IMG/VR virus record: IMGVR_UViG_3300045988_180316
DNA length: 37,769 bases
Reading direction: 5' to 3' (one strand)
Origin: a virus
Lineage: Duplodnaviria; Heunggongvirae; Uroviricota; Caudoviricetes
Positions 3,569 through 29,263 of this stretch are shown here, piece after piece. Under the pieces are notes generated by a model that worked only from the letters and a program-made list of their open reading frames with translations, searched no databases and was not told the DNA's origin. The first letter of the stretch is position 1, and every line of letters starts with the position of its first letter. The translations under genes were made by a program, and so were the position numbers.

Positions 3569-6500
3569 TTATTTGTTTGACTTCATTTTTTGATATTGGC
3601 TCCATTGGCGGTCGAAGCCATCGGGGCCGGTGATGACCACGTATGACTTGATGCCAGCGTTGAGCTGCTCGTTGAGTCTGTCGATGGTGGTATGCACGCT
3701 ATCGAGGGATGCGCCCATCTGCTCGGTGTCGCCACCTGATACGTTGACCACTGGGGCGACCACGGCTGCGCTGCCTGTGCCCATGGCACGGCTCACGTCT
3801 TGGGCGGTGAGCGAGGCGACCGTGTTGTTGCGCTGCGCCATATCGATGAGCTGCAGGGCAGGGAGGAGCTGAGGATTGTTGACGGCGTTGTGGTTGGCGA
3901 CGAACTCGCCAGCGTGAACCACGCCAGCCTCTTTCTTGTAATTGCCAGGACCAGTGAAACCACCCTCGTAATAGCCAGCCGCCTCTGCCTGGTGCTGCTT
4001 TTTGATTGTTGCTATCTGGAGCATGCCCGCTGCGGTGGCGAGACCTGCGGCGATAGGACCAAGGATGTGACCCACCACTGGGATGGCTGCGGCTGATGAG
4101 TAGGCGTTGATGGCAGCCATGGCGGTTGAAGCTATGGCTTGTGCGATCTCTATCTTCATCGCCTTTTTGTTGGCCTTGCTCTTGGCTGCAGCCACCTCTT
4201 TGTCTCGCTTCGCCTCGAGACGCTTTTTCTTGGCTGAGTTGTTGCCAGCGGCAGAAATCTGCTTATCGTAGTTTTTCTCGATCTTGGCGACCTCTAGGTC
4301 TGAGCATGCCTGGGAGTAGGCGGAGGCAGCGCCCATCATCGTGTTGATGCTGCTGAAGGCAGCGCCAGCGATGGAGGCTATCTCTTGATAGGTCTCTTTG
4401 TTCATCTGCTTTTTGGCATCCTGGTATTGCTGCTCGCTGATTTTATCCTCGTCTCGAAGCTTCTGAAGGTTTTGGTTGACCATCTTTTGCTGTTGGATGG
4501 CTGCGATGGCACCACCTGCGATTGTGGCGAGGTTGTCGCTGCCCATGGCATTACTGTTGTCGCCATTGCCCTTGGTCATCTTTTTGGCGGTGTCGAGGGC
4601 GGTGTTGGCATCCTCTTTGCGCTGCTCATCGGCGGTAGGCTTGTATGAGGCGTATTTGTTGGCGATGCCCATCTTTGTGCGCTGGTATTCCTCCTCTCTG
4701 ATGAGACCTGCCTTGTAGATGGCTTCGAGCCCCTGCAGCTCTAGTTGCATCTGCTCTTCGTTGCCGAGCTTGCCGTATTCTTGGCGCAGCTGAAGGAGTT
4801 GTTCGTCGTGTTGCTTCTGAAGGTCGTATTTGCGTTGCTGTTGGGTCAGCTCTCGCTCTTTCTCGATCTGGGCGTACTCGTCAGATGAGGAGAGGTAGAG
4901 GGCTTGTTTTTTGTTGAGATAGTCCTGGTATGAGAGAAAGAGAGCCTCGTTGACGGCATCCTCATTGTGATAGAGGTTGGAGTCTTTGTTGTAGTAATCG
5001 GCATTGAGCTTCATTTCTTTTTTCTGTCGCTCGGTCTCCAGGGCTTCGAGGTCGGCGGTCTGCTTTTTCTCGTAGTCGGCAGCGATGTTTTCTTTCTCTG
5101 CATTGAGTCGCTTGTACTCTTCGCTCTCAGCCTCGCCATACTTTTTGAGAATGTCGAGGCGATCCTGAAGCCCCTGCTCTTTGATATTCTTCATCTTCTC
5201 GTTGTATTCGGCGAGTCGAATCTGACCTGTAGCGTAGAGGGTCTTGGCATCGAGCTCTTCGGCTTGGTTGGCTTTCTTAGCATCGTCTAGCTCTTTTTTC
5301 ATGTCGGCCTTGCGCTTTGCCTCTGCCTTGCGAGCGGCAGCCTCACGTTTCTTTTTCTCCTTTTCGGCAGCTTTGCGCTCTTTCTCGGTCATGGTATGGC
5401 CAGAGGAAGGGGTGGTGTGTGTCTCTGTAGTTGCGCTATTGTTTAGTAAATTCTTCTTTACAGTCTTGTTGTACTGTTTCTGCAAATTTACGTTTTTCTC
5501 TAATTGCTGATTATAGAAATTCTCTTCAGCATTGACTTGCTTTTGCAGGCTTAGGTTTGCCTGTAGTCTTTGCGTATGAACTTGCTTTTGCTTCTCGTTA
5601 CTCTTCAGTGCCTCGTTTTGTTCGATGAGCTGACCTGTCCATCCATCAGCCACGGCATTGCTCTCATATTGCTTAGGATGAGCCTTGCGCTCAGCATCGA
5701 CAGCCTTCAGCGAATATCGTATGCGGCTTTCTTTTTGTTTGAGTTCCAGTTTCTTTTTATTGATTTCCACCTTGCGCTCATAGATGGCTTCTGCCATGGC
5801 AGCATTTTCTAGCTCCTTGATGTAGTTTTGGATGGCAATCTGGTTGTCGTTATACAACTTGCCCTCTTTGGAGATAGAGGCGTGATATTCTGGGACGAGC
5901 TTTATCATATTTGCGATAGCTTGCTTTCGCTCGTCAACGGTATAGGCATTGGAGTGGATAACCTTGTTGAGCATATCGACCTTGTTGCGCTCATCGAGGG
6001 TAGCATCAGACACCTTTTTGGCGAGGCTGGCTTGAGCCTCTGCCACTGCTCTGTTGTTTTTAGCCTCTTGCGTGTTGTTGCGCATCGCCTCGTTGTAAGA
6101 TGTTATGGCTTTGTATGCCCCATAGGCAGCCACGCCCACCACGGTGATGACTGTGGCGAGGGCAGCCCATGGATTGGTGAGACTTGCTAGGCGTGCTGCC
6201 CTCATCACCACGATGTAGCCCTGTATGCCTTTTGTGAGATAAGCCCATGTGGCTTGCAGTGCCACTAAGGCAGCACGCAAGAGTGTAGATGTAGCGGTAT
6301 AAGCTTTATCGACAGCTGAAGCGTATTGTACGGCGGCTGTTTTAATCTTAATGGCGATGGTCTCCTTGTACCAGAGAGCAGTACAAACAGCGATGGCTGT
6401 TGACAGCACGGCTATTTGTTTTGCATAGGTGACGGTGAAGGTGATGAGCGTGGACATGACCTTTATGGTCAGACTGAATGATGTGATGCCATATTTCATG

Positions 6501-7915
6501 GCAGGGATGAGTTTTTCTCCGAGTTCGATGGTGAGGTCTTGGAATCGCTTCTTGGCTTTGTCTAGTTCTGCCTGTACCGTTGTATTCTGGGTATTGAACT
6601 CATTGATGACACTGGTACCGTCGGCATACGACTTGGTGGCGATGTCTTGCGCCTCTTTCACTTGGTCGAGGTGTGTAGCCACGGCGGAGAGAACGCCCAC
6701 GGCACGGGTGCCGTTAAGCTGCATCTCCTCAAACATCGGTGCCATCTCGGCGAAACCACCCTTTGACTTCATGGCTTGCATGAACTTCATCAAGCCCTCG
6801 TTGGCGTTGGTCTTCATCAGGTTGGAGAACTCCTTGACCTGCATGCCCGCTATCTTGGCGAACTTGGCTGGCTCTTGGTACATCTTGGTGATGAGCTGTG
6901 AGAAGACGGTGGCGGAAGTCGCCTCCTCTTGCATATTTTGGTCGAGGGCAGAGGCGAGACCCATGAGCTGTGCCTGGGTCATGCCGGCCTGGATGCCGAC
7001 ACCTGAGAGGTCGGCAGTGAAATCGACGATGTAGCCAGCGTTGGCTGATGAGCTTTGTGCCAGCTCATTGACGGCGGAACCTGTGGCGAGCATCGCACCA
7101 CGAAGGCCTTTGGTCTTATCCTCACCAAACATCTGGGCGAGCTTGCCGATTTTATCGACCGCCCCCTTGCCGAGGTCATCGCCGAGGGCGACATTGATTT
7201 TGTCGGCACCATCAACGAACTCCTCGATCATCTCTTTGCTGGTGATGCCGAGGCGACCGGCAGAGCCAGCCAGCTCGTTGAGCTGCTCACGAGCCGTGCG
7301 GGTATCCATGCGCTTGAAGTCCTCGTTCATCTGATGAACTTGCTCATCGGTCTGACCTGTATATTTGCGCACGTCAGCCATCGACTCCTCCATGTCGGCG
7401 TAGGCTTGAGCTGCAGCTCTCAAAGTAAGAGTGAGTGTGGTGAGACTGCCCAGTATCTGGGTGAAGGCACCCCAGTTTTTGTTAAGACCATCCCACATTC
7501 TAGAGAACAAACTTCTGGAAGCTTTACCTTCGTCGTTGATGTGCTGCATCTCTGCTCGCACTTGCTTTAATTGCTTTTGCAGTTTTTTCCATTCGTCTGA
7601 GTTGCGCTTGATGGCACCGCTTTTCAACTCTCTGTTGAGAGCCTTGGCGACTAGTTGCAGCTCCTTGTATGATGCAGAAGAAAGATTGTTGAGAACTTGG
7701 TTAACCTTCTCTTGGCTAGTCATGTATGCTTTTGTCTCAGCCTTTAATCTCTTTATCTGTCGTTCGAGGGCTGTTGTTGACTCGCCCTTTGCATAAGCCT
7801 CGTCTCTGGCTTTTTGCACTTCTTTCAGCTTGTTTTGCAATTCGTTGAGTTTATCCTTAGCCTCTTTGGTGTCAAGAATAACTCTGCTAACATGGGTATC
7901 TGTATTTGTTGCCAT
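3569..7915 (-). CDS. Tail tape measure protein
   Basis: 1448 aa. It has N- and C-terminal coiled coils, a TP901-type core (...NELAGSAGRLGITSKEM..., ...EATSATVFSQLITKMYQEP...) and central hydrophobic helices. Confidence 0.9.
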   Translation of the reverse strand: MATNTDTHVSRVILDTKEAKDKLNELQNKLKEVQKARDEAYAKGESTTALERQIKRLKAETKAYMTSQEKVNQVLNNLSSASYKELQLVAKALNRELKSGAIKRNSDEWKKLQKQLKQVRAEMQHINDEGKASRSLFSRMWDGLNKNWGAFTQILGSLTTLTLTLRAAAQAYADMEESMADVRKYTGQTDEQVHQMNEDFKRMDTRTAREQLNELAGSAGRLGITSKEMIEEFVDGADKINVALGDDLGKGAVDKIGKLAQMFGEDKTKGLRGAMLATGSAVNELAQSSSANAGYIVDFTADLSGVGIQAGMTQAQLMGLASALDQNMQEEATSATVFSQLITKMYQEPAKFAKIAGMQVKEFSNLMKTNANEGLMKFMQAMKSKGGFAEMAPMFEEMQLNGTRAVGVLSAVATHLDQVKEAQDIATKSYADGTSVINEFNTQNTTVQAELDKAKKRFQDLTIELGEKLIPAMKYGITSFSLTIKVMSTLITFTVTYAKQIAVLSTAIAVCTALWYKETIAIKIKTAAVQYASAVDKAYTATSTLLRAALVALQATWAYLTKGIQGYIVVMRAARLASLTNPWAALATVITVVGVAAYGAYKAITSYNEAMRNNTQEAKNNRAVAEAQASLAKKVSDATLDERNKVDMLNKVIHSNAYTVDERKQAIANMIKLVPEYHASISKEGKLYNDNQIAIQNYIKELENAAMAEAIYERKVEINKKKLELKQKESRIRYSLKAVDAERKAHPKQYESNAVADGWTGQLIEQNEALKSNEKQKQVHTQRLQANLSLQKQVNAEENFYNQQLEKNVNLQKQYNKTVKKNLLNNSATTETHTTPSSGHTMTEKERKAAEKEKKKREAAARKAEAKRKADMKKELDDAKKANQAEELDAKTLYATGQIRLAEYNEKMKNIKEQGLQDRLDILKKYGEAESEEYKRLNAEKENIAADYEKKQTADLEALETERQKKEMKLNADYYNKDSNLYHNEDAVNEALFLSYQDYLNKKQALYLSSSDEYAQIEKERELTQQQRKYDLQKQHDEQLLQLRQEYGKLGNEEQMQLELQGLEAIYKAGLIREEEYQRTKMGIANKYASYKPTADEQRKEDANTALDTAKKMTKGNGDNSNAMGSDNLATIAGGAIAAIQQQKMVNQNLQKLRDEDKISEQQYQDAKKQMNKETYQEIASIAGAAFSSINTMMGAASAYSQACSDLEVAKIEKNYDKQISAAGNNSAKKKRLEAKRDKEVAAAKSKANKKAMKIEIAQAIASTAMAAINAYSSAAAIPVVGHILGPIAAGLATAAGMLQIATIKKQHQAEAAGYYEGGFTGPGNYKKEAGVVHAGEFVANHNAVNNPQLLPALQLIDMAQRNNTVASLTAQDVSRAMGTGSAAVVAPVVNVSGGDTEQMGASLDSVHTTIDRLNEQLNAGIKSYVVITGPDGFDRQWSQYQKMKSNK

Positions 7916-7937
7916 AATTGAATATTTTATTTTATGG

Positions 7938-7945
7938 CAAAGGTA
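7938..7945 (-). promoter_or_regulatory. -7 box (TAccTTTG on the minus strand) for the tape-measure gene
   Basis: Plus-strand CAAAGGTA lies 23 nt upstream of ATG 7915. Confidence 0.5.
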
Positions 7946-7960
7946 ATAAGGAGGAAAATA

Positions 7961-8000
7961 TAATAAAAATACGAGACCGTATGTATTGCGGTCTCGTATT
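7961..8000 (-). terminator. Rho-independent terminator
   Basis: 12-bp stem AATACGAGACCG (7968-7979) / CGGTCTCGTATT (7989-8000) with a U-run on the minus strand (plus TAATAAAA). Confidence 0.7.
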
Positions 8001-8341
8001 TACTTGGTTATCTCTTGCTCTTTTTTAAAGAACTCGTATGCAAGATTGTTTGCATCCCAAACAAGATATTTCTTGTTGGTGTTTCTGAGTGTCTGTTTAT
8101 CACCTGTTATGGAGTTTGCTATCGTGACGCAGAAGAATCTGCCTCGCTTTACGATTTCGGTTGCCGTATTGTTTGGCGATGCCAGTCTTATAGGCTCGTC
8201 AAAATTCTCATCAAAAGTATCAAACAATGGTTCGGAAGCCACTGTGGCTGGGCAAGAACTATTGCCAAGCTTGTCGAGACCTTTGAGGAGTGCAACTGTT
8301 ATAATCGCTAGTATCCAGCATCCAAATATAGTCGTAATCAT
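8000..8341 (-). CDS. Small membrane-anchored protein (low-GC moron)
   Basis: ATG at 8341 gives MITTIFGCWILAIITVALLKG..., an N-terminal TM helix. The track start at 8539 adds an implausible AT-rich leader. Local GC is much lower than in the flanks. Confidence 0.55.
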   Translation of the reverse strand: MITTIFGCWILAIITVALLKGLDKLGNSSCPATVASEPLFDTFDENFDEPIRLASPNNTATEIVKRGRFFCVTIANSITGDKQTLRNTNKKYLVWDANNLAYEFFKKEQEITK

Positions 8342-8428
8342 AATTTGCAAGTTTATTATTATCTTTGTTGCAAATTTAATAATAATATTTGGAATATGCA
8401 AGTATTTTGTGTTAAATCTTTGATTTGT

Positions 8429-8459
8429 TTTGCGGTATGGTGGAAAAATATTATATTTG
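8429..8459 (+). promoter_or_regulatory. Canonical Bacteroidota promoter on the PLUS strand
   Basis: TTTG at 8429-8432, a 19-nt spacer, then TATATTTG at 8452-8459. ATG 8485 lies about 19 nt after the predicted TSS. Confidence 0.6.
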
Positions 8460-8484
8460 CAGTGGCAATTTAATTTTAGAAAGT

Positions 8485-8586
8485 ATGAATAAAGATTTTG
8501 CTTTAATATTGGTAAACATAATATGCGCCTTAACGGCATTTGTTTGTATGATAATCACTATTGTTATTTCATTAGTGAGATTATAA
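8485..8586 (+). CDS. 33-aa hydrophobic peptide (not in the ORF track because it is under 60 aa)
   Basis: Hand translation: MNKDFALILVNIICALTAFVCMIITIVISLVRL*. It has one TM helix and polar ends. Its 3' end overlaps the convergent gene 8564-8920 by 23 nt. Confidence 0.5.
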   Translation: MNKDFALILVNIICALTAFVCMIITIVISLVRL

Positions 8587-8920
8587 TAGTAATACACATA
8601 GATGCGATTGTAATAATCGTGCAAATGATATTGATATATTCTTTGTATTCTTTCAGAAGTGTCAGTCTCTCCTGTCTTCTCTTCTGTTTGTTATAGCCTT
8701 TCTTGGCAGCATTCTCCCCTTGTGGTGTCAGCTTATAATAAGCTTCTCCCCACTCATAAACAAGTCCCTCGTCTTGAAGTGATTGTAGAACATCGTATGG
8801 CTCAATGTCATATCCATACGTATCATTTATAGCACTGTGTACATCGTCTTTGTTAGGACTACCTTCTAAGAACTGGCTTAAAATGAAATCTGCGATTTCT
8901 ATTTGCTTTTTAGTCATCAT
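8564..8920 (-). CDS. Winged-helix-like protein with a C-terminal TM helix (low-GC moron)
   Basis: ATG-ATG at 8920/8917 gives MMTKKQIEIADFILSQ... ending ...INIICTIITIASMCITIIISLMK. The track start at 9004 is GTG and would translate through a terminator-like hairpin. Confidence 0.6.
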   Translation of the reverse strand: MMTKKQIEIADFILSQFLEGSPNKDDVHSAINDTYGYDIEPYDVLQSLQDEGLVYEWGEAYYKLTPQGENAAKKGYNKQKRRQERLTLLKEYKEYINIICTIITIASMCITIIISLMK

Positions 8921-8923
8921 AAT

Positions 8924-8972
8924 CAAATAAAAACGGCTCGTGCATCGGGAGGGCAGTCCTTCAGCACGAGCC
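8924..8972 (-). terminator. Terminator-like hairpin in the 5' leader, directly upstream of ATG 8920
   Basis: Minus strand reads GGCTCGTGC-(20 nt)-GCACGAGCC, then GTTTTTATTTGATT-ATG. Confidence 0.45.
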
Positions 8973-9055
8973 ATTAACAGCTGTATATCTTTATGTCTTG
9001 CCACTCATGAGACCTGCCCGAATCATGTTTGACATCATTGTCTTTAAATATGGTG

Positions 9056-9087
9056 CAAAGATAACGCTTTTATCTGAAAGCACCAAA
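9056..9087 (-). promoter_or_regulatory. Bacteroidota promoter (-7 TAtcTTTG, -33 TTTG) for the moron leader
   Basis: Plus CAAAGATA at 9056-9063 and CAAA at 9084-9087, with a 20-nt spacer. It is embedded in the imperfect palindrome GGTGC..AGATAA-CGCTT-TTATCT..GCACC. Confidence 0.5.
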
Positions 9088-9103
9088 TGATTTTACGAAA
9101 ACT

Positions 9104-9715
9104 TTATTTCACCACCTCTATGTATCTCGAGTAATCAATCTTGGAGTGGGGATTGTGGCTGACTATCTGCACCTGATAGCCCTTGGTGCCCCATCGCCAC
9201 CAGAGGAACTTGTGGCGGTAGGTGCGGCTCACGATGGTCGTCAGGCTGTCTCGAGACGAGTACTGGCACTCTCGCTTGGGGATGTCGATATGGAGGGAGA
9301 GCCATTGGTCTCGGTAGGTGTAGATGGAATCGGGGATGCCGGAACCAGCCACGGCGGCGGTCGGTTCGGGCGTGAGATAGACCGTATCGGCGGTGGTTGA
9401 CGAAGCTGTGTGGATAGACTGCACATCTTTGAGCCGCACTTTGAGGTCTTTGATGAGCTTGGTATCGGCGAGGTGGAGCTTTTGCAGCTCGTCGTATTTC
9501 GCCTGAAGGGCGTTGAATATGGCGACATTGAGAGTGTCTCTCACGTTGGCATATTCAATGTCGTAGTTGAGGTTGGCTACGTTGTAGCTCTGTCGGTCGA
9601 GGTCAGCCTGAAGCTGCTCGCACTTGTTGGCGGAGTGGATGAATGCGACGGCGGTCACGATGAGCAGGGCTGCCAGGAGCTGGATGATAATCTTGGGTGT
9701 GATTTTTTTTATCAT
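9104..9715 (-). CDS. Membrane-anchored coiled-coil protein, spanin-like lysis accessory candidate
   Basis: 203 aa with an N-terminal TM (IIIQLLAALLIVTAVAFI) and a coiled-coil segment. It lies directly downstream of the amidase. Confidence 0.4.
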   Translation of the reverse strand: MIKKITPKIIIQLLAALLIVTAVAFIHSANKCEQLQADLDRQSYNVANLNYDIEYANVRDTLNVAIFNALQAKYDELQKLHLADTKLIKDLKVRLKDVQSIHTASSTTADTVYLTPEPTAAVAGSGIPDSIYTYRDQWLSLHIDIPKRECQYSSRDSLTTIVSRTYRHKFLWWRWGTKGYQVQIVSHNPHSKIDYSRYIEVVK

Positions 9716-9745: not shown

Positions 9746-10171
9746 TTATGCGATGTCTTTGTATTCGTCGATGGCATTGAAGCAAGGACACATCTTCTTC
9801 CATTTGGACTTGTCCTTGCCCCAGATGTCACGATGGCCCATTATCTGGGCATCAGGGAACTGAGCCTTCAGTTTGTGGAGAAGCAAAACGAGGGCGTCTT
9901 TTTGCTCTGGTGTGCGGTTGTCGATAGCCTTGCCCTTAGCATCGATGCCACCGATATAGGCGACGTTGATGGCTGTGGAGTTGTAGCCCTGCACGCCGTT
10001 GCTCACCTTTTCGATGGCTAGGAGTTGGTGGATGCCGCCGTTTGGGGCGATGACGTAGTGATAACCTGGATTGGTCCAGCCCTTGCGGCGGAACTCTGCC
10101 TTGAGGTCGTCGATGGACTGACTTTGTGAACCTGCGGTGCAGTGGACGAAAATGCGTTTAATCTGTCTCAT
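9746..10171 (-). CDS. Endolysin, N-acetylmuramoyl-L-alanine amidase (Amidase_2 / T7-lysozyme-like)
   Basis: ATG at 10171 gives MRQIKRIFVHCTAG...GYNSTAINVAYIGG...IMGHRDI...KMCPCF (Zn ligands His/His/Cys). The track's 5' extension was trimmed. Confidence 0.85.
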   Translation of the reverse strand: MRQIKRIFVHCTAGSQSQSIDDLKAEFRRKGWTNPGYHYVIAPNGGIHQLLAIEKVSNGVQGYNSTAINVAYIGGIDAKGKAIDNRTPEQKDALVLLLHKLKAQFPDAQIMGHRDIWGKDKSKWKKMCPCFNAIDEYKDIA

Positions 10172-10412
10172 TATTTTGCTTGTTATGATTGAACAATTTG
10201 TTTTTGATGTTGTCGAACTTGGCATCGATGGCGATGGCGACACCGAAGATGGATCCGGCATACATGAGCGACTGGGCGAAGTACCAGAGCACATTGTCGG
10301 TGACATCACGTGCCTGGGACGTGAAGTAACTGATGTAAACCAGTATGATGGCGAGGAGGAGCACGGCGATGGCTGAGCCGTATTGTATCCATTCTTTAGT
10401 ATTTCTCTGCAT
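10158..10412 (-). CDS. Holin candidate (2 TM helices)
   Basis: ATG at 10412 (MQRNTKEWIQYGSAIAVLLLAIILVYISYF...LMYAGSIFGVAIAI). The track ATG at 10442 lies inside the -7 box. The gene overlaps the amidase start by 14 nt. Confidence 0.6.
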   Translation of the reverse strand: MQRNTKEWIQYGSAIAVLLLAIILVYISYFTSQARDVTDNVLWYFAQSLMYAGSIFGVAIAIDAKFDNIKNKLFNHNKQNNETD

Positions 10413-26923: not shown

Positions 26924-26955
26924 CAAAGGTAAGAAGAAAATCCGGAACCGCCAAA
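26924..26955 (-). promoter_or_regulatory. Full Bacteroidota promoter (-33 TTTG, 20-nt spacer, -7 TAccTTTG)
   Basis: Plus CAAAGGTA at 26924-26931 and CAAA at 26952-26955. The -33 box is formed by the end of the upstream terminator's U-run. Confidence 0.6.
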
Positions 26956-28376: not shown

Positions 28377-28408
28377 CAAAGGTAACAATAAAGTTATAAA
28401 TAACCAAA
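28377..28408 (-). promoter_or_regulatory. Full Bacteroidota promoter for hicAB
   Basis: Plus CAAAGGTA at 28377-28384 and CAAA at 28405-28408, with a 20-nt spacer. Confidence 0.6.
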
Positions 28409-28576: not shown

Positions 28577-29263
28577 TTATAGCTTTCCCTTGTCGTGGTA
28601 GCTGTAGAAGCCATCCTCGGCTAAGATGATGTGGTCCATCAAGAAGAGTCTCATCACCTCGCACGCCTTGGCTATCTTCTGCGTGAGCATATCGTCCGCC
28701 TTGCTCGGCTGCGTGCTGTTCGATGGGTGGTTGTGCGCCACGGCGATGATGGTTGCGTTGTTGAGCACGGCTTCTTTCATTATCAGCCTTATGTCCACCG
28801 CTGTGTCGGTGATGCCTCCCTCGCTGAGCTTCACACTCTTTATCAGTCTGAAGTTTTGGTTCATCAGCACTACCCAAAAGCCCTCTGTCTCATTGCTTCC
28901 CATCATCGGGCGAAGATAGTTGTAGAGTGCTAGGCTGCTGCCTAGGTCGGTATTACGTGCCACCTTTTCCATTTGGTAGCGTCTGCCTAGCTCGATGGCT
29001 GCCTGTAGGGCTATCGCCTTGCAGTCGCCGATGCCTGGTACCACCTCTAGGTCTTCGATTCTCGCCTTGCCGATATTGCGAAGTGAGTTGTCCATGATGT
29101 TATAAATCTGTCGTGCCTGCTCTTGGCTGTCCTTGGTACCTGCCCCTCTGTTGATTACCAAAGAAATCAAGTCAACGTTGGTTAGGGTGTCGAAGCCTTG
29201 GTTATAGGCTCTGTACTGCGGTCTCTCCTCCATACAAAGGTCGTTATAATTTTGTCGTATCAT
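28577..29263 (-). CDS. radC: RadC-like JAB/MPN-domain protein
   Basis: 228 aa with an HhH-like GIGDCKAIALQAAIELGRR and a JAMM motif ...ATIIAVAHNHPSNSTQPSKADDMLT.... Confidence 0.85.
   Translation of the reverse strand: MIRQNYNDLCMEERPQYRAYNQGFDTLTNVDLISLVINRGAGTKDSQEQARQIYNIMDNSLRNIGKARIEDLEVVPGIGDCKAIALQAAIELGRRYQMEKVARNTDLGSSLALYNYLRPMMGSNETEGFWVVLMNQNFRLIKSVKLSEGGITDTAVDIRLIMKEAVLNNATIIAVAHNHPSNSTQPSKADDMLTQKIAKACEVMRLFLMDHIILAEDGFYSYHDKGKL

Follow-up and report, generated by a model that had tools for sequence, protein, structure and literature searches.

We describe here a small plus-strand gene in a 37,769-nt stretch of DNA (IMG/VR virus record IMGVR_UViG_3300045988_180316, Caudoviricetes; hereafter the window), which belongs to a temperate phage. 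The gene, a small open reading frame (sORF), encodes a hydrophobic peptide of 33 amino acids (aa) and converges on a minus-strand gene, called gene A in what follows, whose product is a predicted winged-helix protein with a C-terminal membrane anchor. From its conserved frame and its pattern of substitution, we regard the sORF with high confidence as a genuine protein-coding gene. Together with gene A it makes up a two-gene membrane cassette, not described before, that is rare in gut Bacteroidales phages but recurs among them, and its product appears to be a strict partner of the tail-anchored winged-helix family to which gene A belongs. As a tentative reading, to which we would give not quite even chances, we propose that the peptide serves gene A as a cognate partner in the membrane, or antagonises it, and that convergent transcription couples the two within a mobile two-gene cassette. 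In the literature we found no description of a tail-anchored winged-helix protein paired with a convergent mini-protein. To our knowledge, temperate Bacteroidales phages have very few characterised systems of the accessory or conflict kind, and the sORF/gene A pair offers an experimentally tractable module in them. Small membrane proteins are systematically missed in the annotation of phages and gut microbes, and the sORF is an example of this.

Direct reading and translation of the sequence place the ATG of the sORF at 8485 and the end of its stop codon at 8586. The best 18-residue segment of the peptide has a Kyte-Doolittle mean of 2.86. The length of the reading frame is by itself not beyond chance, since there are 48 open reading frames of at least 25 aa in the 3.5 kb around it, and its status as a gene rests on conservation. 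Homologues of gene A with 100, 82 and 58% identity flank three distinct alleles of the sORF, and ATG, frame and stop codon are kept in all of them. The contig L017, where gene A is 82% identical, encodes MNKDFSLILINIICALTAFICMIVTLVTSLVR in the same convergent position; in L015 and L016, where gene A is 58% identical and the genomic context is different, the sORF product is MDKDLTLTLINVVCALLALISMIVSIVLH. Differences at the first, second and third codon positions number 6, 1 and 11 between the window and L017, and 13, 3 and 17 between the window and L015. Furthermore, the ratio of non-synonymous to synonymous substitution rates (dN/dS, Nei-Gojobori) for the window and L017 is 0.11 in the sORF frame, and ranges from 0.45 to 3.8, with stop codons, in the other five frames. 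The preservation of frame, start and stop, together with these coding-type substitutions, argues that the sORF is a gene. No gene had been called at its position on those family contigs whose gene tables were inspected, no peptide-like protein was found in a collection of 5.8 billion proteins queried with the 53-aa extended frame, and the JGI metagenomes scanned with the peptide yielded identical copies only.

The Bacteroidetes sigma-A-type promoter consensus combines a −7 element, TAnnTTTG, with a −33 element, TTTG, located about 19-21 nt upstream. The window has 6 copies of the full motif, written as TTTG-N18-21-TAnnTTTG, where shuffled sequences would lead one to expect 0.29 (a 20-fold enrichment), and 38 copies of the −7 octamer alone against 14.7 expected; on the strength of this excess over expectation, the promoter motifs are real signals in this phage genome. 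Upstream of the sORF the motif is matched exactly. The distance of 25 nt between the −7 box and the ATG implies a leader of about 19-20 nt, with transcription probably starting near 8465. The leader is AT-rich, and the predicted fold of the mRNA (8466-8660) is unremarkable, with a z score of −1.2. A TAnnTTTG box precedes the ATG by 33-38 nt in each of the three close alleles (TATATTTG, TATTTTTG and TAATTTTG), and a −7 box lies 33-40 nt before the partner ATG in six of the seven loci of the gene A family that have enough upstream sequence. The box and its flanking bases (GAAAA..TAnnTTTGC.G) can be aligned across six loci.

Several of these features had been put forward in the original prediction, which drew on the letters of the window and a list of its reading frames. 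A hidden plus-strand gene for a hydrophobic 33-aa peptide was proposed there, and is borne out both by the sequence and by conservation across relatives; the coordinates given for it were right to within one base, the ATG being at 8485 and not at about 8486. The proposed promoter, TTTG-19 nt-TATATTTG with the ATG about 19 nt past the predicted transcription start, agrees with the exact motif and with the leader length given above, and the claim that the last 23 nt are antisense to the 3' end of the convergent gene at 8564-8920 is confirmed. Three features escaped it: the association of the peptide with a protein family, the length of up to 104 aa that the partner attains in relatives, and the likeness of the peptide to the membrane anchor of gene A, all of which are described below.

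Gene A was modelled with AlphaFold from a 20-sequence alignment, with a predicted local distance difference test score (pLDDT) of 92.7. In the model, a winged helix built of three helices and a beta-hairpin wing leads into a short helix, and a single long helix (residues 76-117) then spans the linker and the anchor. The best matching folds in the PDB are PadR-like proteins, LmrR, SSV1 F-93, RosR and MarR types. The Pfam PadR profile matches gene A with an E value of 0.037 and 14.5 bits, below the gathering cut-off of 27 that membership of the family requires, PADLOC reports WH_III-A only (E 0.019), NCBIfam gives nothing significant, and one gene A allele carries the depositor label 'Mrr N-terminal domain'. 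On the basis of the model, gene A would be a winged-helix protein of PadR/MarR-like fold, anchored in the membrane by its C-terminus, for which DNA binding is plausible.

The exact gene A sequence is on record on 626 contigs, and a profile search with three gene A sequences returned 29 representatives at E < 1e-3. These are about 115-160 aa long and agree in architecture: all share the N-terminal domain, which a basic linker joins to a hydrophobic helix at the C-terminus. Relatives of gene A are few. A scan of viral contigs gave three near-identical phages only, the JGI metagenomes scanned with gene A gave no match, and the species-representative genomes gave one weak match, in Clostridium neonatale (L018; 40% identity over 50 residues). 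Among the INPHARED phages there was only a 70-nt match to the hairpin in the gene A leader, besides distant matches to structural genes. Two apparent anchor-less variants of gene A (P0003 and P0004) were rejected as contig-end artefacts; the Logan contigs L022 and L023 break within the AT-rich part of gene A that encodes the anchor, giving spurious 'truncated' proteins, and L023 ends in the Nextera adapter CTGTCTCTTATACACATCT.

The sORF of the window is not an isolated case within this family. We compared ten family loci, made up of the three close alleles (window, L017 and L015) and seven further contexts, and found in all ten a convergent, 3'-overlapping small open reading frame, 29-104 aa long, whose product ends in a hydrophobic helix. 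The coding sequences overlap by 9-53 nt. The same screen applied to the other genes of the window and of the loci gave 2 chance positives in about 69. Two of the partners, those in L038 and L040, are uncalled. Between the window peptide and the L038 partner a relationship is detectable (the observed score was equalled by 1 of 2000 shuffles); that with the L035 partner is weak (38 of 2000). In the longer partners the helix is preceded by 15-80 polar residues at the N-terminus and followed by only 1-6 more, and a signal peptide is lacking, an arrangement that suggests an orientation with the N-terminus inside the cell, parallel to the tail anchor of gene A. Upstream of the −7 box of the hidden 35-aa partner in L038, and directly adjoining it, are four to five tandem 21-bp repeats (GGATATTCAATAAAATTCCAC, about 1990-2100), which the winged-helix protein may use as an array of operators.

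Within the close clade, the peptide appears to be a near-copy of the anchor of gene A. Its segment NIICALTAFVCMIITIVISLVRL and the last 22 residues of gene A, NIICTIITIASMCITIIISLMK, align without gaps and are identical at 11 of 22 positions. The alignment scores of the three close pairs are 61, 58 and 55, against means of 24-32 for composition-preserving shuffles; at most 1 of 3000 shuffles scored as high, and z is about 7. At the nucleotide level 43 of 69 positions are identical, divided as 15, 17 and 11 of 23 at the first, second and third codon positions. As there is no DNA palindrome, this likeness points to two coding copies rather than to a hairpin. A stripe of small and polar residues, N-x2-C-[A/T]-x2-[A/T]-x2-[C/S]-M-x2-T-x3-S, is common to both helices; if each residue turns the helix by 100 degrees, an arc of 120 degrees takes in N11, C14, A15, A18, C21, M22, T25 and S29 of the peptide, and this shared arc suggests a packing face.

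The two genes also travel together. In the related phages L007-L014, whose homologue of the neighbouring gene B is 42-44% identical, gene B follows directly after the DUF6549 gene, and homology to the window resumes at about 8426. This adjacency indicates that some 680 bp of the window are an insertion. The BLAST homology between the window and L015 covers exactly the interval from 8909 to 8442, that is, gene A, the sORF and its −7 box, despite the different genomic context of L015. A further exchange is seen in the sister phage L035, which has the backbone of the window (holin, amidase, DUF6549, cassette, gene B and tape-measure gene). The two sequences are 94% identical down to 8879 and 98.6% identical from 8495 onward, with no similarity between these points. 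The flanks conserved around this replacement include both promoters, the hairpin of the gene A leader and the first codons of both genes. Joint replacement between conserved promoters shows that the two genes have been exchanged as one unit, the pattern expected of specific cognate pairs. Coordinates of these features and the partners of the seven further loci are collected in Table 1. As a side observation, the locus between the lysis genes and gene B is, on the comparison of the window with L035, a hot spot of cassette swapping. In L015 (876-1553) and L033 (821-1303) only a few genes separate the gene A/partner pair from HicA-like, HicB-like and DUF5053 genes, so that these loci may belong to a different Bacteroidales element, in a region that is accessory or rich in toxin-antitoxin genes.

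Table 1. Features of the sORF/gene A cassette in the window, and convergent partners of gene A homologues in other loci.
Feature	Position	Strand	Description
sORF promoter, Bacteroidetes type	8429..8459	+	−33 TTTG at 8429-8432, 19-nt spacer, −7 TATATTTG at 8452-8459; exact match to the motif
sORF coding sequence	8485..8586	+	33 aa plus stop, MNKDFALILVNIICALTAFVCMIITIVISLVRL; single hydrophobic helix; conserved in L017 and L015, more distant homologue in L038
3'-end overlap of sORF and gene A coding sequences	8564..8586	opposite strands	23 nt
Gene A	8564..8920	-	118 aa; residues 4-74 form a winged helix, followed by a basic linker and a membrane helix at the C-terminus; convergent to the sORF
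Gene A leader hairpin	8932..8975	-	12-bp outer stem and U-run, between gene A promoter and start codon; terminator- or attenuator-like
Gene A promoter motif	9056..9087	-	TTTG-N20-TATCTTTG; conserved in L017, L024 and L035
Accessory cassette, about 680 bp	~8422..9103		Gene A promoter and leader hairpin, gene A, sORF, sORF promoter; low G+C; without counterpart in related phages
Swapped coding core	8496..8878		Replaced in sister phage L035 (1591-2067) by another gene A-like gene, 162 aa, and another partner, 46 aa
L032 partner			104 aa
L033 partner			63 aa
L035 partner			46 aa
L037 partner			51 aa
L038 partner			35 aa; uncalled; MERKELFYDILVTLTNAVCAIVSVVCALIILLHCK
L040 partner			49 aa; uncalled
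L041 partner			39 aa

The hairpin ahead of gene A begins about 75 nt past the promoter motif of that gene and ends about 8 nt before its ATG. It is conserved in L017, where three changes in the stem are compensatory, and is matched at 88.6% in phage MT835559; in L015 an unrelated terminator-like hairpin occupies the same place ahead of the gene A homologue. The hairpin could terminate the lysis operon, act as an attenuator, or belong to a small RNA some 120 nt long.

In the window nearly all long reading frames lie on the minus strand. Around the cassette the order on that strand, from high to low coordinates, is a holin-like gene, an Amidase_2 endolysin (9746-10177), DUF6549 (9104-9715), gene A, gene B (8000-8341) and a tape-measure-like gene (3569-7915; 1448 aa). 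The G+C content of the interval 8001-9000 is 0.36, against about 0.5 elsewhere in the phage. Gene B encodes, on the minus strand, a protein of 113 aa whose N-terminus is hydrophobic, as in a lipoprotein or a signal anchor, either of which it may be. It is preceded by a TAAATTTG box of its own at 8371-8378, and matches no family in Pfam, PHROG, PADLOC or NCBIfam; its preservation at 42-44% identity in phages that lack the cassette suggests an independent accessory gene. A hairpin with a 15-bp stem follows gene B at 7967-8001, just before the promoter box of the tape-measure gene (7938-7945), and is the sole consensus terminator in 7800-9200. Near the first letter of the window lie a tRNA-Met gene (224-299) and a tyrosine integrase gene (416-1579), which confirms the int gene named in the original prediction, where the sORF was put forward as the only other plus-strand coding candidate; one full promoter motif (161-192) is directly upstream of the tRNA-Met gene and another (1283-1313) is inside the integrase gene. 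The tRNA-Met beside the integrase is likely the attachment-site tRNA. Exact promoter motifs are also found on the minus strand at 26924-26955 and 28377-28408, in a stretch of lower G+C at 27-29 kb near a RadC-like gene (28577-29263), which is probably an early or regulatory region.

Returning to the sORF and gene A, a simple consensus scan found no terminator on either strand between 8001 and 9200. If the scan is right, transcripts of the sORF would run antisense through gene A, and those of gene A through the whole of the sORF, so that the potential RNA duplex would be far longer than 23 nt. We propose the following course of events. The sORF would be driven by its own sigma-A-type promoter and translated behind a short, unstructured leader into the 33-aa peptide, which would insert into the cytoplasmic membrane as one helix with its N-terminus in the cytoplasm. 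At the protein level, this helix would pack in parallel on the homologous anchor helix of gene A and would thereby control the oligomeric state or the activity of gene A, with the peptide acting as cognate antagonist or co-subunit. At the RNA level, the convergent transcripts would be mutually antisense, which would make expression of the two genes mutually antagonistic. The open and strongly promoted leader of the sORF, set against the terminator-like hairpin before gene A, suggests that the peptide is 'on' by default and that gene A is held low or made conditional. If the helices do pair, the cassette would be a case in nature of a membrane anchor that, as a separate copy, regulates the protein to which it belongs. 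Its role would most likely lie in phage-host or phage-phage conflict, toxin/antidote-like or in exclusion, as for other prophage morons; that the peptide is a toxin is possible. It is a speculative step, and one we consider unlikely to prove right in full, to see in the cassette an undescribed class: a membrane-embedded two-component conflict module of Bacteroidales phages in which winged-helix protein and mini-protein would neutralise one another through pairing of their transmembrane helices, reinforced by mutual antisense, with pairs exchanged between fixed promoters and a mini-protein skipped by gene callers.

Several observations weigh against this proposal or limit its reach. The similarity between peptide and anchor is significant only in the clade of the window, L017 and L015; it is weak in L038 (z = 3.4), and a shuffle test finds none in L032, L033, L035 or L037, which means that helix-helix contact cannot be read from similarity across the family. 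Hydrophobic helices can look alike through composition, for which shuffles control only partly. The terminator scan was a simple one and may miss Bacteroidetes terminators. As to the sORF itself, the close clade holds three alleles only and the dN/dS ratio is based on 32 codons, the last 7 codons of the sORF being independently constrained by the 23-nt overlap with gene A. Conservation of the sORF and its promoter in related prophages, suggested as a check in the original prediction, is found for the frame and for the −7 box; neither L017 nor L015 has the −33 TTTG at its canonical distance.

One variant of the proposal reverses the roles of the two genes, so that gene A would be the harmful or effector component and the abundant peptide its antidote, acting as an anchor decoy and through antisense transcription. 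This sub-case of the preferred explanation accounts for the consensus promoter and open leader of the sORF, for the terminator-like hairpin that is conserved before gene A and has its like before the L015 homologue, for the peptide being a near-copy of the gene A anchor, and for the joint swapping of gene A and its partner, as would be expected of specific pairs. The harmfulness of gene A is, however, an assumption of this variant, the anchor similarity is absent in half of the family, and the hairpin may simply terminate the upstream lysis operon, and we consider the reversal rather unlikely.

It also seems improbable that the sORF belongs to a toxin-antitoxin system of the classical type I, where a depolarising or pore-forming peptide would be held down by the antisense 3' part of the gene A mRNA, or by read-through, and the prophage would be stabilised by the killing of cells that lose it. 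Convergent, 3'-overlapping type I systems are represented by fst/RNAII, txpA/ratA, bsrG/SR4, yonT/SR6 and C. difficile CD/RCd, and type I toxin mRNAs typically carry structures that sequester the start site. The sORF shares with them a predicted convergent partner transcript over its 3' end, an arrangement present in 10/10 family loci, and there is no terminator motif between the two genes. With 33 aa, the peptide lies within the size and character usual for such toxins (hydrophobic membrane peptides, usually of <60 aa). Type I toxins are small, with a single helix and short polar ends, a general description that the peptide fits, and its prophage location has parallels in txpA/ratA, bsrG/SR4 and C. 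difficile CD/RCd (PMC12648545).

The remaining evidence points away from such a system. Searches of Pfam, PHROG, NCBIfam and PADLOC at E values up to 1 gave no match of the peptide to any family, Hok/Gef, Fst/Ldr, TisB, Ibs, ShoB and TxpA/BsrG included, the PADLOC defence models gave nothing for it, and Rfam gave nothing near its gathering scores, an antitoxin RNA included. There is no −7 box on the minus strand between 8586 and 8920 from which a dedicated non-coding antisense RNA could be transcribed, and the antisense partner is instead a conserved protein-coding gene. The short leader, predicted to be unstructured (about 20 nt; mRNA fold z = −1.2), and the consensus promoter would leave a toxin unrestrained. 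Furthermore, the partners of 63 and 104 aa in relatives, with their soluble N-terminal parts, exceed the usual toxin size, and the helix of the peptide is at its C-terminal end, with no charged C-terminal tail after it. A limited search of the literature on Bacteroidota found no hydrophobic-peptide type I system, SymE being the sole mention. In view of the missing family match, of the lack of a small RNA promoter or Rfam antitoxin, and of the short leader, predicted to be open, membership of the Hok/Fst/TisB class or of type I systems, as originally suggested, is not upheld; the alternative offered with it, a small membrane modulator, is the best-fitting label for a promoter-equipped gene of a single-helix peptide. 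We do not file the sORF as a type I system, and keep antisense control as a component of the favoured model.

The peptide might instead act independently, in lysogenic conversion, in superinfection exclusion or by modulating some membrane protein of the host, as small proteins of the MgrB, AcrZ or MgtR type do, its linkage to gene A reflecting shared regulation only. The cassette is indeed moron-like, with low G+C, its own promoters and a presence/absence pattern among related phages, and both the lysis genes and the tape-measure gene are close by. That the peptide strictly accompanies the gene A family in two contexts unrelated to each other, and that both genes are replaced together, points to functional dependence, however, and makes independent action decidedly unlikely. 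That the sORF is no gene at all, being a chance reading frame in AT-rich DNA, the mirror of a palindromic terminator or a dead inverted duplicate of the 3' end of gene A, is a view that short reading frames common around it and the resemblance of the peptide to a tail encoded on the opposite strand might invite, but one that is extremely improbable and already largely refuted by the coding-type substitutions, by the conservation of ATG, stop and promoter across relatives of 58-100% identity, by inverted repeats too weak for a palindrome (19 nt, 74% complementarity), and by peptide and tail being least alike at third codon positions, as befits two coding copies. Two specific candidates were rejected on like grounds: a mirror reading frame arising from a palindrome or bidirectional terminator, for lack of a strong inverted repeat and because substitutions are of the coding type, and a shufflon-like invertible alternative C-terminus for gene A, because the best inverted repeat has 19 nt at 74% and the sORF has its own conserved ATG and promoter.

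A cognate pair of membrane proteins encoded by convergent genes, the reading that we prefer, can be compared with several known systems. Prophage morons and superinfection-exclusion genes include HK97 gp15 and the lactococcal Sie2009. Like morons, the cassette has its own promoters and a lower G+C content, is present or absent among related phages, and encodes small membrane proteins; unlike HK97 gp15 and Sie2009, to which it has no homology, it is a convergent pair of two genes. Gene A recalls the PadR regulators, including membrane-sequestered PadR systems, in that its N-terminal fold is closest to PadR, LmrR and MarR and is weakly matched by the PadR and WH_III-A profiles. It differs from them in scoring under the family cut-off, and its C-terminal helix is a predicted membrane anchor and not a dimerisation helix.

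Closer parallels are found among small proteins that act on a larger one within the membrane. In the pairs MgrB-PhoQ, MgtR-MgtC, AcrZ-AcrB and SafA-PhoQ, a small protein binds a larger membrane protein by helix-helix contact. The peptide, with about 30 aa, one membrane helix and a proposed packing on the transmembrane helix of its partner, resembles these small membrane-protein regulators, a class reviewed in PMC12648545. In contrast to them, the gene of its putative target lies convergently within the one cassette, the target protein is only tail-anchored, and in this clade the peptide is paralogous to the target helix. A similar sharing occurs in holin/antiholin pairs such as lambda S105/S107, in which two proteins have nearly the same helix and one antagonises the oligomerisation of the other. 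The peptide and gene A likewise share essentially the same helix, and the cassette stands beside lysis genes. Nevertheless, they are separate convergent genes and not products of dual starts, gene A has a cytoplasmic winged-helix domain, and other members of the family adjoin HicAB-like and DUF5053 genes and not lysis genes. By analogy, the module would work most like a small regulator bound to a specific partner, or like a helix-sharing holin/antiholin pair.

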